Positions 3,900-8,032 of a stretch of 18,057 nt of DNA are shown here, one piece after another. The position numbers were made by a program, and so were the translations under genes. Origin of the DNA: a virus; UHGV virus genome UHGV-0071990, one strand, 5' to 3'. The notes beneath the pieces are model-generated. The model saw nothing but the letters and a program-made list of their open reading frames with translations. It was not told the DNA's origin and did no database searches. Each line of letters opens with the position of its first letter. The stretch's first letter is position 1.

Positions 3900-4159
3900 C
3901 AAAGCCTGCGTAAGTTAAATAAAGAAAGTCTTAATAAAAGAAAGTGATTTTGCATTTATTTGTTTAGTGCATCTATTATAAAAAACCATTTGCATATACA
4001 TATCAAAACTGTGGATAACTTAATTAGCCGATGCCTGTAAAGGCGATATTTACGCTGTGTTCAGGTTTAGAGAAAATTAACTTAGATTATTTTTTGAACA
4101 GATATTTTATTGCGACGTAGATAATCCTCCGGTAAAACCGGATTCATCATTCAGGTGGG
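3900..4159. other. Candidate plasmid-type replication origin (oriR-like): AT-rich region immediately downstream of repA
   Basis: Very AT-rich stretch located 3' of the RepA gene, which is where oriR lies in IncFII replicons. It contains a perfect DnaA box. No ORF of 60 aa or more is present. Confidence 0.4.
4010..4018 (-). promoter_or_regulatory. Consensus DnaA box (TTATCCACA on minus strand)
   Basis: Plus strand reads TGTGGATAA at 4010-4018, a perfect 9/9 match to the DnaA box consensus. Confidence 0.5.
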
Positions 4160-5008
4160 TTAATGTTGAAGTGATTTCCAGGTCTTTCTTAGCCTGTTAT
4201 AACGCTGCTCAACGAGGGAGCGTAAATATGCAAGGTCAGCACCAGGATACATGCCATCAGCAAACTCCTGGCTAACCTCTCTAGTGATTTGATGACGAAG
4301 TTCGGCCTCTCCCTTTTCCCGGACAAGACGCGCAGCTCTCTCCGCTGCTTTCTGTTTTGCCTTTATCTCTCTGGCCGTCTTCCTCTGACGCCATACATTC
4401 TCCATCTGCTCCTGAATAACAATACGCTTATAATCAGCCTCCGTTATCGCTTTTTTAAGCCGTTCGCTATTCTTCGCATTGAAGTAATTAAGTTTCTGGC
4501 TAACCGCACGTCTCCATGCTTGTTCAGTAATACCAACGGTTTCCAGCAGTTGATCACGAATCTCTATTTTCGCTGGCCAATACTGTTTATTCACCCGATC
4601 CCAGCGACGTTCATAATCAATAAAACCTAACGCTTTCAGTTGCGACAACGCCCTTGTACAGCGCGTTATAGACTTGTTCCCAGCTTCAGATACGGTAGAC
4701 AGGCCGCAAAAATCAGCCAACGCCTCAGCACTAGCCAGAACCCGCTTAGAAATGATGTTTACATGGTGCAAAATCGCAGCGATCACAGCATTAATCGCCC
4801 GACGACGATGCTCGTTTATCCGGCGCTTCCGCTCTGACGGTTGATTAACGTAGAACGCAACCTCACACGTAAGATCACGCCCATTAATGCGCTGTAAAGC
4901 ATCAGATAACACCAGTGGCAGCTTGTGCGTATGGTGCTTTGGAGGCTGGAACTCCGGCGATAAATTACAAACGTAAGCTGAACGTAGAGACGGCATTGGT
5001 CTATCCAT
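4160..5008 (-). CDS. repA: Plasmid replication initiator, IncFII RepA-family (about 282 aa from ATG at 5008)
   Basis: Translation contains RRAINAVIAAILHH...CGLSTVSEAGNKSITRCTRALSQLKALGFIDY and a basic, coiled C-terminus, which resembles the R1/R100 RepA1 protein as I remember it. The ORF track extends in-frame to 5170, but the ATG at 5008 gives the expected size. Confidence 0.75.
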   Translation of the reverse strand: MDRPMPSLRSAYVCNLSPEFQPPKHHTHKLPLVLSDALQRINGRDLTCEVAFYVNQPSERKRRINEHRRRAINAVIAAILHHVNIISKRVLASAEALADFCGLSTVSEAGNKSITRCTRALSQLKALGFIDYERRWDRVNKQYWPAKIEIRDQLLETVGITEQAWRRAVSQKLNYFNAKNSERLKKAITEADYKRIVIQEQMENVWRQRKTAREIKAKQKAAERAARLVREKGEAELRHQITREVSQEFADGMYPGADLAYLRSLVEQRYNRLRKTWKSLQH

Positions 5009-5018
5009 ATGTTCGCTC

Positions 5019-5046
5019 TTGCGTCCACGGAAAACCAACGTATAAT
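5019..5046 (+). promoter_or_regulatory. Sigma70-like promoter (-35 TTGCGT, 16-bp spacer, -10 TATAAT) directing transcription antisense to the repA leader
   Basis: Seen directly: ttgcgt at 5019-5024 and tataat at 5041-5046. Together with the terminator at 5105-5135 it defines a roughly 80-nt transcript. Confidence 0.5.
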
Positions 5047-5052
5047 GGGAGT

Positions 5053-5135
5053 TGTCGAGGCGCCCATGGATTGTTTTGTTGGTTTTCCGTGGATGTCGCA
5101 AGAAGCCCGCAGATTTATCTGCGGGCTTTTTGTTT
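5053..5135 (+). ncRNA. Putative CopA-like antisense RNA complementary to the repA mRNA leader (copy-number control)
   Basis: Promoter at 5019-5046 followed about 60 nt later by a strong intrinsic terminator. The unit lies 45-130 nt upstream of the repA start on the opposite strand, the same layout as CopA/CopT in IncFII plasmids. The transcription start is inferred, not observed. Confidence 0.5.
5105..5135 (+). terminator. Rho-independent terminator (GCCCGCAGA-ttta-TCTGCGGGC followed by TTTTTGTTT)
   Basis: Seen directly: a perfect 9-bp stem, 4-nt loop and T-tract on the plus strand. Confidence 0.65.
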
Positions 5136-5174
5136 CCATATCTGGTCAGTTTCCAACCAGACACCCACAATCGT

Positions 5175-5191
5175 AACCACGTTACGTGGTT
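5175..5191. promoter_or_regulatory. Perfect 17-bp palindrome (AACCACGT-T-ACGTGGTT) upstream of repA; candidate operator
   Basis: Seen directly, between the invertase stop (5321) and the repA leader. Confidence 0.3.
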
Positions 5192-5320
5192 TTAAGAGAA
5201 CTCTACCACAACACTTTCGGTCATGCACGAAGTCTCTCGCTAATCGAACGATAATCCACCAGTAAAAGGATCTAAATCGGATCTCGTGTTGCGAGCATCA
5301 TACTACTGGTCTTACTCCAG

Positions 5321-5875
5321 TCAATGATTCCCAGCCGGAAACCTGCGGTAAAGCGTGGATAAAGCAACATCGAAGATAATCGCTATCTGTTTACGTGAAA
5401 CACCATTCGCAATAAGCCTTCCGACCTGTTCCCATTGCTCTGGAGCCAGTTTTGAGCGGCGCCCCCCTATCCTGCCGTTAGCCCTTGCCACCGCTAATCC
5501 CGCACGCGTTCTTTCAATAATATTTTCCCGCTCCATTTCTGCGACCGCACTCAGCATTGTGTAGGCAAAGCGGCCAATTGATGTGCTAATTTTTATTCCT
5601 TCTGTAACAGAAATAAACTCAATGTTGTTTGATAAAAAATAGTTAAGTAATTCAACAAGATGAATCAGAGAACGTCCCATTCTGTCCAGCTTCCAGACAA
5701 TAACCGTATCGCCCGGCCGTAACGCTTTTATCAGCTTATCCAGTCCTGGTCGTTTTGACTTCGCGCCAGATATTTTATCTTCAAAAATCCGGTCACATCC
5801 TGAACTCCTGAGCGCTTCCAGTTGTAATTCCAAATTCTGGTCAAAAGTTGACACTCTCGCATAGCCGTATTGCAT
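5321..5875 (-). CDS. Serine-recombinase DNA invertase of the Hin/Gin/Cin/Pin family (184 aa)
   Basis: N-terminal catalytic motif GYARVSTFDQNLELQ, then VWKLDRMGRS, AEMERENIIERTRAGL, GRIGGRR and a C-terminal HTH (RKQIAIIFDVALSTLYRR), all collinear with Gin/Pin as I remember them. It lies directly adjacent to a crossover site. Confidence 0.93.
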   Translation of the reverse strand: MQYGYARVSTFDQNLELQLEALRSSGCDRIFEDKISGAKSKRPGLDKLIKALRPGDTVIVWKLDRMGRSLIHLVELLNYFLSNNIEFISVTEGIKISTSIGRFAYTMLSAVAEMERENIIERTRAGLAVARANGRIGGRRSKLAPEQWEQVGRLIANGVSRKQIAIIFDVALSTLYRRFPAGNH

Positions 5876-5939
5876 ACTTTCTAACCCGCAATTGTTGCTA
5901 AAAGCGGGAAAAAATATCGTTCAGACGACACGGAGGCAA

Positions 5940-5965
5940 TTCTCAAAAACCTCGGTTTGCAGGAA
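5940..5965. promoter_or_regulatory. 26-bp invertase crossover site 1 (gix/cix/pix-like), core TC at 5952-5953
   Basis: TTCTCAAAAACC-TC-GGTTTGCAGGAA. The inner half is a perfect inverted copy of the inner half of site 2, and the outer half matches 9 of 12. It resembles the gix consensus TTCCTGTAAACCGAGGTTTTGGATAA. Confidence 0.8.
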
Positions 5966-6943
5966 ACGATAAACAAGGCTGGTAACGCCGTCCAAAAGAC
6001 AGGTGATGACTTATCAGGTGGACTTACTTTTACAAACGATTCAGTCCTTGCTTGGGGGAGAAATACTGACAGCGCAAAAATCGGATTTAAAAATGATGCC
6101 GACAGCGACACTGATTCATACATGTGGTTTGAAACGGGAGATAACGGCAATGAATATTTCAAATGGAGAAGCAAACAAAGCACAACAACAAAAGACCTGA
6201 TGACGCTGAAATGGGATGCGCTAAATATTCTTGTTAATGCCATTGTAAATGGCGAAGTCATATCAAAATCAGCAAACGGCCTCCGTATTGCTTACGGTAA
6301 TTACGGATTCTTTATTCGTAATGATGGTTCAAACACATACTTCATGTTGACAAACTCCGGTGACAACATGGGGACTTATAACGGATTAAGGCCATTATGG
6401 ATTAATAACTCTACTGGCGCTGTTTCGATGGGGCGTGGCCTTAGTGTTTCAGGAGAGACATATTCAGACCGTTTTGCGATTAATAGCGGCAACTCCATGT
6501 GGGTTGATATGCGCAAACAGAATGTCATTTTTGGCCGTAATGCGGTATCTAACGACAGTGCCCAGGCATTGTTACGTCAGGACCATAAAGATCGCAAATT
6601 TATGATTGGCGGTCTGGGAAATAAGCAATTTGGCATCTACATGATTAATAACTCAAGGACAGCCAATGGTACTGACGGTCAGGCGTATATGGACAATAAC
6701 GGTAACTGGCTTTGTGGTTCACAAATTATTCCCGGAAATTATGGAAATTTTGATTCCCGCTATGTGCGTGACGTTCGTATGGGAGCTAACCAGAGCGGAA
6801 TAAAATGGGGTGGTGAAGGTGGAACACTCCCGGCGGGGTATGTTCTTACAGGAGGTAACTTTGATGATGACTGGGAGTGGCCTGTTTATGCGCCCGTCCA
6901 GAAATATATTAATGGTCAGTGGTACAATGTAGGACGTGCTTAA
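5954..6943 (+). CDS. Silent alternative tail-fiber C-terminal cassette (about 329 codons, no own start)
   Basis: The open frame begins at the crossover with [15 protein letters not shown], paralleling GLQETVNQAAGALQK in the expressed fiber. It ends with the conserved C-terminal motif [11 protein letters not shown] (expressed copy: INGTWYNAGSI). It has no upstream start or Shine-Dalgarno motif. Confidence 0.8.
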
Positions 6944-6944
6944 T

Positions 6945-7472
6945 ATGCAGCATTTAAAAAATATTAAAGCAGGAAATCCAAAAACCATCGAACAGTATCA
7001 ACTTACAAAAGAATTTGATGTTGTCTGGTTATGGTCGGAAGACGGTAAGAACTGGTATGAGGAACAAAAGAATTTTCAGCCAGACACGTTAAAAATGGCA
7101 TATAACCAGGAGGGTATTATTTGCTGCATAGAGAAAGACGTATCCCTGATTAACCCGGAGGGAATGAGTGTGATTGAGTTACCCAATATTACGGCAAACC
7201 GACGCGCTGATATTTCCGGCAACTGGATGATTAAGGATGGTGCTGTAATTAAAAGAGTCTATACAGAAGATGAATTACAACAGCAGGCTGAATCACAAAA
7301 AGCAGCTTTGCTTTCCGAAGCTGAATCAGTCATCCGGCTGCTGGAACGTGCCGCCAGGATGAATCTGGCAACAGATGAGGAACGTACACGGCTGGATGGC
7401 TGGGAACGCTACAGCGTTCTGCTCAGCCGCGTGGATACGGCAAATCCAGAATGGCCACAAAAGCCTGAATAA
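6945..7472 (+). CDS. tfa: Tail fiber assembly chaperone, cognate to the silent cassette
   Basis: [20 protein letters not shown]... is closely paralogous to the 7499..8032 protein (shared [40 protein letters not shown] motifs). It starts 2 nt after the cassette stop. Confidence 0.85.
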
Positions 7473-7477
7473 AAAAT

Positions 7478-7495
7478 AAGGCCCGAACGGGCCTT
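7478..7495. terminator. Bidirectional hairpin terminator between the convergent tail-fiber assembly genes
   Basis: AAGGCCC-gaac-GGGCCTT with an A-run upstream and T-rich sequence downstream. Confidence 0.5.
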
Positions 7496-7498
7496 CTC

Positions 7499-8032
7499 TC
7501 ATTCTGGTTGTTCGGGGAACGTGACTGGCAGGACGGAGGTATCCGTAGACTCTACTTTCTGCGCGTAGAGCAGCCACTCGGTCAATTTTTGTTTATTCTC
7601 AGCAGAAATAATTCCAAGTCGTAGCTGAGAATCCCATAGCTGAGTTTTATCCCTGACGAGTTGTAACAGGTTTTGCTTCTCATTTTCCGCCTGTTGTCTC
7701 TGTTCTTCTTCGGTATATTCCCGCTTTATCACTGCGCCATCTTTGAACATCCAGTTACCAGAAATATCGACTCGCCTATTGGCTGTAATATCAGGAACCT
7801 CAACAACGCTTAAACCTTCAGGATTAATTGTCGATACATCCTTATCTACAGCCACAATGATTCCATCGGCAGTGTAAGCAAATTTTATTGTATCTTCCTG
7901 AAAGTTTTTCTGTTCCTCATACCAGTTTCTATCGTCATTAGAATACAACCAGACAACACCAAATTGTCGTGTTAATTCATATTGCTCTACGGTTTTGGGA
8001 TTTCCTGATTTGATATTTTTTAAATGCATCAT
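7499..8032 (-). CDS. tfa: Tail fiber assembly chaperone, cognate to the expressed fiber C-terminus
   Basis: MMHLKNIKSGNPKTVEQYEL... is paralogous to the 6945..7472 protein. It lies 2 nt downstream of the tail fiber stop. Confidence 0.85.
   Translation of the reverse strand: MMHLKNIKSGNPKTVEQYELTRQFGVVWLYSNDDRNWYEEQKNFQEDTIKFAYTADGIIVAVDKDVSTINPEGLSVVEVPDITANRRVDISGNWMFKDGAVIKREYTEEEQRQQAENEKQNLLQLVRDKTQLWDSQLRLGIISAENKQKLTEWLLYAQKVESTDTSVLPVTFPEQPE

Follow-up and report, generated by a model that had tools for sequence, protein, structure and literature searches.

How is replication gene repA controlled on UHGV virus genome UHGV-0071990, and what does the short block opposite its leader encode? 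We addressed this question at positions 5019–5135 of the 18,057-nt stretch analysed here (hereafter the window), which belongs to a phage-plasmid and carries repA on its minus strand at 4160–4996, within an open reading frame (ORF) spanning 4160–5170. The gene, labeled repA in plasmid records, encodes a replication initiator of the IncFII/L-M type with 278 aa from ATG 4996 or 282 aa from ATG 5008, which matched the Pfam model PF02387 (IncFII_repA; E = 1.5e-43, 149.7 bits, cut-off 22.9) and the NCBIfam model NF040977 (RepA_IncFII_LM; 231.4 bits, cut-off 70). A preliminary description of this DNA had proposed antisense copy-number control over an IncFII-family repA, and this logic was supported by the PF02387/NF040977 assignment of RepA, the invariant promoter and terminator of the antisense cassette, its covarying stems and its hypervariable loop. 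We consider it fairly probable that 5019–5135 encodes an antisense RNA, about 80 nt long, which represses repA through refolding of the leader and sets the copy number. The anatomy of the cassette, its conservation, the covariation of its terminator and helix arms, the hypervariable loop, and the direction of refolding in every lineage are computed results and are presented below.

On the plus strand, the −35 hexamer TTGCGT (5019–5024), identical in all cassettes of clade A (the window type, see below), precedes the −10 hexamer TATAAT (5041–5046). The two are separated by a 16-nt spacer. This promoter had been called near-consensus, which is an overstatement: TATAAT is perfect, but only three of the six positions of TTGCGT agree with TTGACA. 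It looks like a constitutive promoter of the sigma-70 type. The intrinsic terminator reported about 60 nt past the promoter was present on the same strand at 5098–5135. Its 9-bp G+C stem (5105–5113/5118–5126) closes a TTTA loop and is extended by five more A/G-U pairs (5100–5104/5127–5131), and the element, with its U-tract at 5127–5135, ends with TTTTTGTTT at position 5135. Neither signal was listed by a consensus promoter/terminator scan, the promoter because its −35 fails the scan rule of at least four matches out of six, and the terminator probably because the A-T extension of the stem consumes the T run. The two signals imply an RNA of about 80 nt at about 5053–5133, and its proposed position over the repA leader was borne out, as it lies 45–127 nt upstream of ATG 5008 and 57–139 nt upstream of ATG 4996. 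Folding of this RNA (taken as 5054–5134; −41.2 kcal/mol, z = −6.5, with no shuffled sequence folding as well) gave SL1, a hairpin at the 5′ end whose U-rich loop has 15 nt, followed by the terminator hairpin. SL1 occupies 5059–5097 (stems 5059–5062/5094–5097 and 5064–5070/5086–5092), and its apical loop at 5070–5085 is the presumed recognition (specificity) loop. Three of the 11 SL1 pairs are G-U pairs, which on the sense strand become C-A mismatches. The same two-hairpin architecture was predicted in all of the 15 alleles folded, out of 25.

To place the cassette in an evolutionary context, relatives were gathered by DNA similarity, by scanning viral contigs at the protein level, by searching metagenome and viral contigs for DNA patterns, and through RepA homologs of 60–85% identity and their contigs, while protein and DNA-pattern scans of a genome-contig collection returned no relatives. 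The searches yielded 25 distinct cassettes in two clades, with RepA identity down to 60%. Clade A (RepA 62–100% identical) comprises loci from Escherichia, Salmonella and Klebsiella aerogenes, and clade B (RepA about 60% identical) comprises loci from Citrobacter freundii and from viral contigs of 45–47 kb. All 25 cassettes share the −10 TATAAT, a −35 of the form TTGC(G/A)T, the RNA 5′ end GUCGAGGC and the U-tract, and the core ATTATA...GTCGAGGC was common to 25 out of 25 in both clades. In clade B, the core reads GCCTCGACAACTCCGATTATA (RNA 5′ end plus TATAAT), the −35 is TTGCAT with an 18-nt spacer, and the terminator stem is different. Among four clade A lineages, 87–93% of the positions in 5130–5086 and 5070–5011 were invariant, with 27–47% in the flanks and 33–40% in the first repA codons, and the conserved islands coincide exactly with the terminator and its U-tract, the RNA 5′ end, the −10 and the −35. 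The stems covary as well. Over 18 cassettes, the terminator showed compensatory changes at three pairs, one position having three pair types. Over 12 clade A alleles, the terminator was 100% paired and SL1 was paired in 97.7% of cells, with one compensatory pair; SL1 and terminator together were 99.1% paired with two compensatory pairs, a result equaled by nine of 500 shuffles, and slid controls gave 43–53%. These comparisons support a real antisense RNA gene.

The frozen block is interrupted at one place. In the four lineages, the SL1 apical loop was 13% invariant, vs. 87–93% on each side. At least 15 loop alleles were found in clade A and at least nine in clade B, always at the SL1 apex and with indel lengths that are not multiples of three. 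Within the E. coli group, 12 variable alignment columns fall within 5070–5083, several of them arising from indel placement, and this segment has eight haplotypes in 21 loci; the neighboring stretches of 53 nt and 116 nt to its two sides have two and three, respectively. Diversity in the group was 0.136 in the variable part of the loop (5069–5078) vs. 0.017 elsewhere. A frozen gene with a fast-changing loop is how an antisense specificity determinant should be expected to look, and incompatibility in IncK/IncB plasmids is altered by single changes in the top loop of their antisense RNAI (PMC10724649). According to the folding, two parts of the target are single-stranded in both conformations of the leader: the hypervariable half of its loop and the segment complementary to the RNA 5′ tail. 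This fits a role of both parts in nucleating the antisense pairing.

The repA leader has a second structural feature. An inverted repeat of 16–17 bp had been described as bracketing the promoter. The repeat is present, with 16 perfect pairs between 5023–5039 and 5078–5094, and forms a long stem in the fold of the repA leader, but it does not bracket the whole promoter because one arm sits inside the promoter spacer. The sense leader folded with z = −6.6, no shuffled sequence being as good, and in its minimum-energy structure the repeat constitutes a long helix between a 5′ arm at 5078–5105 (minus strand), inside the antisense target, and a 3′ arm at 5016–5039 (minus strand). Because this downstream arm lies in the promoter spacer, outside the antisense RNA, the RNA holds the complement of the upstream arm only. 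The arms read CCACGGAAAACCAAC and GTTGGTTTTCCGTGG in the window type, CCACCGGAATCCAAC and GTTGGATTCCGGTGG in locus L035, CCACAGAAATCCAA and TTGGATTTCTGTGG in the L012 type, and, with unrelated sequence, TTGTCAGCCAGG..GCCACAC and GTGTGGCCCTGGCTGACAA in clade B. RNAalifold over both clades recovered the terminator alone, since a sequence alignment cannot register arms that have been replaced, and arm-duplex energies were used instead. Cognate duplexes reached −39.0 kcal/mol (window type), −41.8 kcal/mol (L035) and −30 to −38 kcal/mol (clade B), vs. −12 to −29 kcal/mol for non-cognate ones, so that in three arm families the cognate pair was better by at least 10 kcal/mol; helices were weaker or mismatched in some lineages (Salmonella, L040 and L034). 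Judged from these sequences, the two arms co-evolve. As the arm sequence is fully replaced while complementarity is kept, an RNA helix rather than a protein site is favored.

The translation start region of repA (4994–5009, minus strand) contains ATG 5008–5006 and ATG 4996–4994. The preliminary description had implied a repA start at 5008; the start that all relatives share in the repA frame is instead 4996, the sole repA-frame start codon common to every lineage examined. In the E. coli group, ATG 5008, which follows an AAGAG motif, is also in the repA frame. Just before ATG 4996 lies CCAA, complementary to GUUGG of the 3′ arm. The leader was folded with the 79–81 nt complementary to the antisense RNA either free or unavailable for pairing (the blocked state). 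The probability of AUG 4996 being unpaired was 0.94 in the free leader and 0.02 in the blocked one, where CGUUGGUUU pairs with AGACCAAUG and UCCGUG with UAUGGA. In all seven lineages first folded, blocking the target replaced the long helix by a hairpin that covers the start region. The refolding predicted for the window thus appears as well in Salmonella, L012, L034, L035 and L040, and in clade B over the start of the first ORF. The opening cost of the start-codon footprint rose by 1–8 kcal/mol in 15 of the 15 cassettes folded with the target blocked. The partner of GUUGG before the start codon varies (CCAAU, CCAGC, UCAAC, CCAAC), and the ability to pair is always kept.

From these results, we propose the following model. 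The antisense RNA, with a short single-stranded 5′ tail, SL1 with its large U-rich loop and the terminator hairpin, would be present at a concentration that tracks the plasmid copy number. In the free leader, pairing of the 5′ arm (5078–5105) with the 3′ arm (5016–5039) would leave the repA start codon single-stranded and translatable. The antisense RNA would pair with the leader, starting from the SL1 loop and the 5′ tail, and capture the 5′ arm, to which it is complementary, and not the 3′ arm, because its promoter sits between the arms. The freed 3′ arm would then close the start by pairing across the start codon and the bases immediately before it. The resulting decrease in RepA synthesis would provide negative copy-number control and replicon incompatibility of the phage-plasmid. 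We infer from sequence and folding that the RNA is made, that it represses repA and that refolding is the actual mechanism.

Several observations weigh against this model. The pattern TTG-N19-TATAAT occurs once in the 18-kb window, with 0.30 matches expected and at least one in 51 out of 200 shuffles, so the promoter pattern alone, with its weak −35 (three of six), is not significant; the cassette goes beyond chance because it is conserved and covaries in relatives. In the stem statistics, most positions never vary in the aligned alleles, and few events underlie the pair figures. The hypervariability of the loop could partly stem from CAA-repeat slippage or relaxed constraint and not from diversifying selection. 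The long helices of L034 and L040 contain a C-A mismatch in the sense orientation. With regard to the refolding, the footprint of ATG 5008 is about equally closed in both states, and partial pairing also affects the AAGAG motif, which lies at the base of the long helix. When the start region was shuffled, a rise in opening cost equal to or larger than the natural one appeared in 16 of 60 trials for the window, and in one of 60 for L034 and five of 60 for L033. Because of these shuffle results, the refolding step is plausible but not established.

Three other explanations were weighed against the refolding model. According to one of them, which we regard as rather unlikely, the antisense RNA is real and represses repA by a classical route instead of refolding, either by blocking a frame that opens at the Shine-Dalgarno (SD)-proximal AUG (5008) and is coupled or fused to repA, or through RNase III cleavage and message decay. 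Plasmid R1 works through tap (PMC5717011), and the clade B cassette precedes an ORF of 158–162 aa, or its 63-codon remnant, with the ORF end overlapping the repA start (ATGA) in a tap/repB-like manner; ATGGATAGACCA at 5008 in the window resembles the start ATGGAAAACCAC of that ORF, the SD-proximal AUG of Salmonella and L012 opens an out-of-frame ORF running over the repA start, and the shuffle control does not single out refolding in the window. However, 34 nt separate the end of the antisense RNA from the AAGAG motif downstream, so that the RNA cannot directly occlude this ribosome site, and the overlapping ORF stops 13–46 codons after its start, at places that depend on the lineage and not at the repA start. 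A classical route would also leave unexplained the co-evolution, in both clades, of a 16–22-bp helix with one arm in the target.

It seems improbable that no antisense RNA is made and that the conserved block is only a cis-acting structure of the repA mRNA (an enhancer, stabilizer or thermosensor) whose promoter-like and terminator-like sequences on the plus strand are by-products. The promoter statistics given above would suit this explanation, as would the long helix and the upstream hairpins, which show structural selection on the sense leader. Nevertheless, a perfect TATAAT correctly spaced from TTGC(G/A)T occurs in 25 of 25 cassettes, although the sense fold leaves it unpaired in an apical loop, and the G-U pairs of SL1 fit the antisense orientation only. 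The only known role of an A-run on the 5′ side of the sense hairpin, conserved here, is that of the U-tract of a plus-strand terminator. Moreover, a hypervariable loop in a frozen block is a signature of antisense/target specificity (PMC10724649). We regard as highly improbable the remaining explanation, in which the hairpin at 5100–5131 simply separates the invertase gene from repA, as an insulator or as a terminator working in both directions, and the repeat acts at the level of DNA (as a protein-binding site or a cruciform). The hairpin does lie 190 nt downstream of the invertase stop codon, on the same strand as repA, and the sub-threshold matches from Rfam are just generic terminator- or attenuator-like ones. 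On the minus strand, however, it is followed by UUCUUGCG, a poor U-tract, and it belongs to the leader of repA, with both candidate repA promoters located upstream of it. Conservation of sequence would be expected of a protein site, whereas the arms change wholly between the clades yet stay complementary, and both the promoter and the hypervariable loop would be left unexplained.

The arrangement in clade B was also observed. In L030, L031, L038 and L039 (about 1016–1504), the cassette is followed by the ORF of 158–162 aa, which has a RepA-like winged-helix region and, for the 158-aa form in L031/L032, a recorded match to Pfam IncFII_repA; L033 (1323–1515) has only the 63-codon remnant. By sequence, ATG 5008 of the window looks homologous to the start of this ORF, and the loci compared suggest a series that begins with coupled control involving two genes and leads to direct control of the kind proposed for the window.

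The annotated RepA starts were compared as well. Records such as that of ATCC 25922 give a RepA of 326 aa (P0001; a cluster of 525 member sequences) from an ATG inside the antisense terminator (equivalent to window position 5139). The SL1 loop of the window is one base shorter (CAACAAAACAA vs. CAACAACAACAA), placing ATG 5139 out of frame, and Salmonella and more distant relatives lack this ATG and are called at 277–279 aa; relatives with RepA identity of 60–85% are called at 274–283 aa, mostly 277. An N-terminal extension from ATG 5139 was accordingly rejected, since the frame is broken in the window by the 1-nt loop indel and distant relatives are without the ATG. For the same reasons, the stretch is non-coding, and the extension of the 326-aa form (window 4996–5139, minus strand) looks like an annotation artifact. 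A leader peptide from the conserved ATG 5068 (MGASTTPIIRW...), considered as an analog of tap or repB, was rejected too: it has no ribosome site, its AUG falls within the SL1 stem palindrome CCAUGG, and its frame ends 32–83 codons on, at varying places.

Further upstream, the minus strand contains two candidate repA promoters. One, TTGACT and TATGAT separated by 16 nt (5297–5324), agrees with the consensus at 10 of 12 positions, and its −10 is kept in clade A. The other is an extended −10 of the form TGnTAGAGT (TGGTAGAGT, 5200–5208), for which 14 leaders representing both clades were listed: 12 have the motif, and the remaining two carry one substitution in the hexamer. Two hairpins of the sense leader were identified upstream of the antisense target by folding and comparison. 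The first, AACCAC-N5-GTGGTT (5175–5191), comes directly after TGnTAGAGT and has conserved arms and a variable loop; judged from its sequence, the pair 5200–5208 and 5175–5191 could be a second repA promoter with a 5′-terminal stabilizing stem-loop, or an operator. The second (5140–5162) is replaced in sequence in Salmonella, L012, L034 and L035, with pairing kept and G-U pairs in the sense orientation only. At about 5262–5290 on the same strand, just downstream of the upstream promoter, two or three phased GATC(C)TTT repeats were observed, with three copies in clade B loci, which could be an element sensitive to Dam methylation or SeqA that ties repA transcription to replication.

With regard to the element itself, window 4100–5400 is 97–99% identical to about 60 non-mobilizable Escherichia plasmids of 46–52 kb, including the plasmid of E. 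coli ATCC 25922, and is also close to the three Yersinia phages vB_YpM_39/41/44. The identity of the window to E. coli phage-plasmids of about 48 kb, that of ATCC 25922 among them, and to Yersinia phage vB_YpM_44 is 98%. The related records encode ParA/ParB and repA alongside tail, head and terminase genes of the P2 type, which makes the element a phage-plasmid (about 48 kb). It was found in 71 of 5426 complete E. coli genomes, every time on a plasmid. Two copies on separate records were never seen among the 71 carriers, a count uninformative for incompatibility, as the prevalence is too low to expect any co-residence. The linear ATCC 25922 record NZ_CP032086.1 (94,204 bp) contains the region twice; its size is about twice that of the 48.5-kb plasmid, and it is probably a head-to-tail assembly concatemer and not a case of two co-resident replicons. 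Upstream of repA and on the same minus strand is a Cin/Hin-type invertase gene (5321–5875; 184 aa, Resolvase and HTH_7 domains), which adjoins a tail-fiber gene at 5957–6943, with tail-fiber assembly genes in opposite orientations at 6936–7472 (plus) and 7499–8032 (minus). The organization of 5321–8032 resembles that of the invertible host-range segments of P1 and Mu. MOB-suite leaves the replicon untyped in the records examined, which annotate only protein genes in the control region, and no publication on this replicon came up in our literature search; phage vB_YpM_HQ103 and the phage-plasmid group pSLy3 are different elements.

Antisense control of IncFII-type replication is textbook knowledge, and such an RNA is therefore unsurprising here. 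What the analysis adds is a probable, so far unannotated antisense RNA gene with its own sequence and fold, outside the CopA family and undetected by Rfam, on a common phage-plasmid; it probably has a switching mechanism of its own, and the cassette appears, from the sequences compared, to move between repA contexts. As a tentative and somewhat doubtful extension, the cassettes may represent an undescribed class of riboregulators in at least two clades of enterobacterial phage-plasmids of about 45–49 kb, in which the antisense gene is nested in the loop of its own target's helix, the promoter spacer doubles as the arm acting against the ribosome-binding site, capture of the 5′ arm flips translation without a leader peptide or pseudoknot, and the apical loop serves as a fast-changing incompatibility barcode (at least 24 alleles) that allows escape from the replication control of related phage-plasmids. 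If the model of the control region is correct, it would mend the widespread mis-annotation of the RepA start, turn the loop alleles into a sequence-based predictor of incompatibility groups for these phage-plasmids, and add a leader-peptide-free variant based on helix competition to the known antisense mechanisms. In addition, the natural series comprising the coupled 160-aa ORF, the 63-codon remnant and the cassette directly before repA would make the evolution of coupling-dependent and coupling-independent control accessible to study.

The cassette was compared with known antisense systems. Like CopA/CopT of R1 (RF00042), it is predicted to specify a constitutively made antisense RNA of similar size with two hairpins opposite the leader of an IncFII-family repA, which has two candidate upstream promoters, and it would set copy number and incompatibility by loop-loop recognition. 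The preliminary description had seen no obvious match to CopA, and the Rfam search agreed: CopA was absent at E ≤ 10 in 4900–5350, PK-repBA (RF01089) and PK-repZ (RF01087) had no match at E ≤ 10 in the same region, and the whole window matched no family at its gathering threshold (60 bits for CopA). Permissive matches (Thr_leader with 31.5 bits and a CsrC terminator) were dismissed as resemblance of shape, not homology. As a positive control, the leader of L005 (Klebsiella, RepA 37% identical), the closest classical outgroup, scored 56.7 bits with PK-repBA (gathering threshold 45) and 36.9 bits (E = 4e-5) with CopA. Unlike in CopA, the recognition loop here is in the 5′ hairpin and not in the terminator hairpin; unlike R1, the element has no copB gene; and unlike in the CopA/tap system, the window lacks an ORF that is preceded by a ribosome site and stops where repA begins, the frames of conserved upstream AUGs ending 13–83 codons on at varying positions. 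Since the RNA, unlike CopA, ends 34 nt from the nearest ribosome site, a steric block of leader peptide translation is unlikely. The mechanism is probably not that of CopA/tap.

In pT181 and pIP501, replication is controlled by countertranscript-driven attenuation, in which the antisense RNA occupies segment 1, segments 2 and 3 pair, and expression is turned off. The three-segment logic applies here too. In contrast to these plasmids, the predicted off-structure covers the ribosome-binding and start region and is not a transcription terminator, and the Rep family and the hosts (enterobacteria) differ as well. The alternative hairpin predicted to form upon antisense binding is followed by coding sequence and no U-tract, and the promoter/terminator scan listed no minus-strand terminator between 5054 and 4990.

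In the plasmids of the I-complex and IncL/M (ColIb-P9 repZ, pMU720 repBA and pMU604), the antisense RNA and a rep-proximal segment compete for one upstream target, so that antisense binding blocks a long-range contact on which translation depends, and the loop sequence sets specificity (PMC10724649). A similar scheme is proposed for the cassette, whose RepA, like theirs, is of the NCBIfam IncFII/L-M type. Such target competition would involve the 5′ arm, which complements both the antisense RNA and the co-evolving 3′ arm, its outcome being predicted by folding with a weak shuffle control in the window. The long-range interaction differs, being a nested helix of 16–22 bp here vs. a pseudoknot of 7–8 bp, and the antisense promoter lies inside the loop closed by that helix. 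The cassette also differs in that UUGGCG does not occur in its target loop (5019–5135 contains neither TTGGCG nor CGCCAA) and the window has no leader peptide of the repB/repY type. A UUGGCG hairpin was found in the leaders of L005 (1350–1470) and L029 (1360–1460; RepA 63% identical), and the presence of such classical leaders in related loci suggests that control modules are exchanged among related repA genes. By analogy, the I-complex/IncL-M scheme, in which an antisense RNA and a downstream segment of the leader vie for the same target, appears to be the closest functional counterpart of the repA control region described here.

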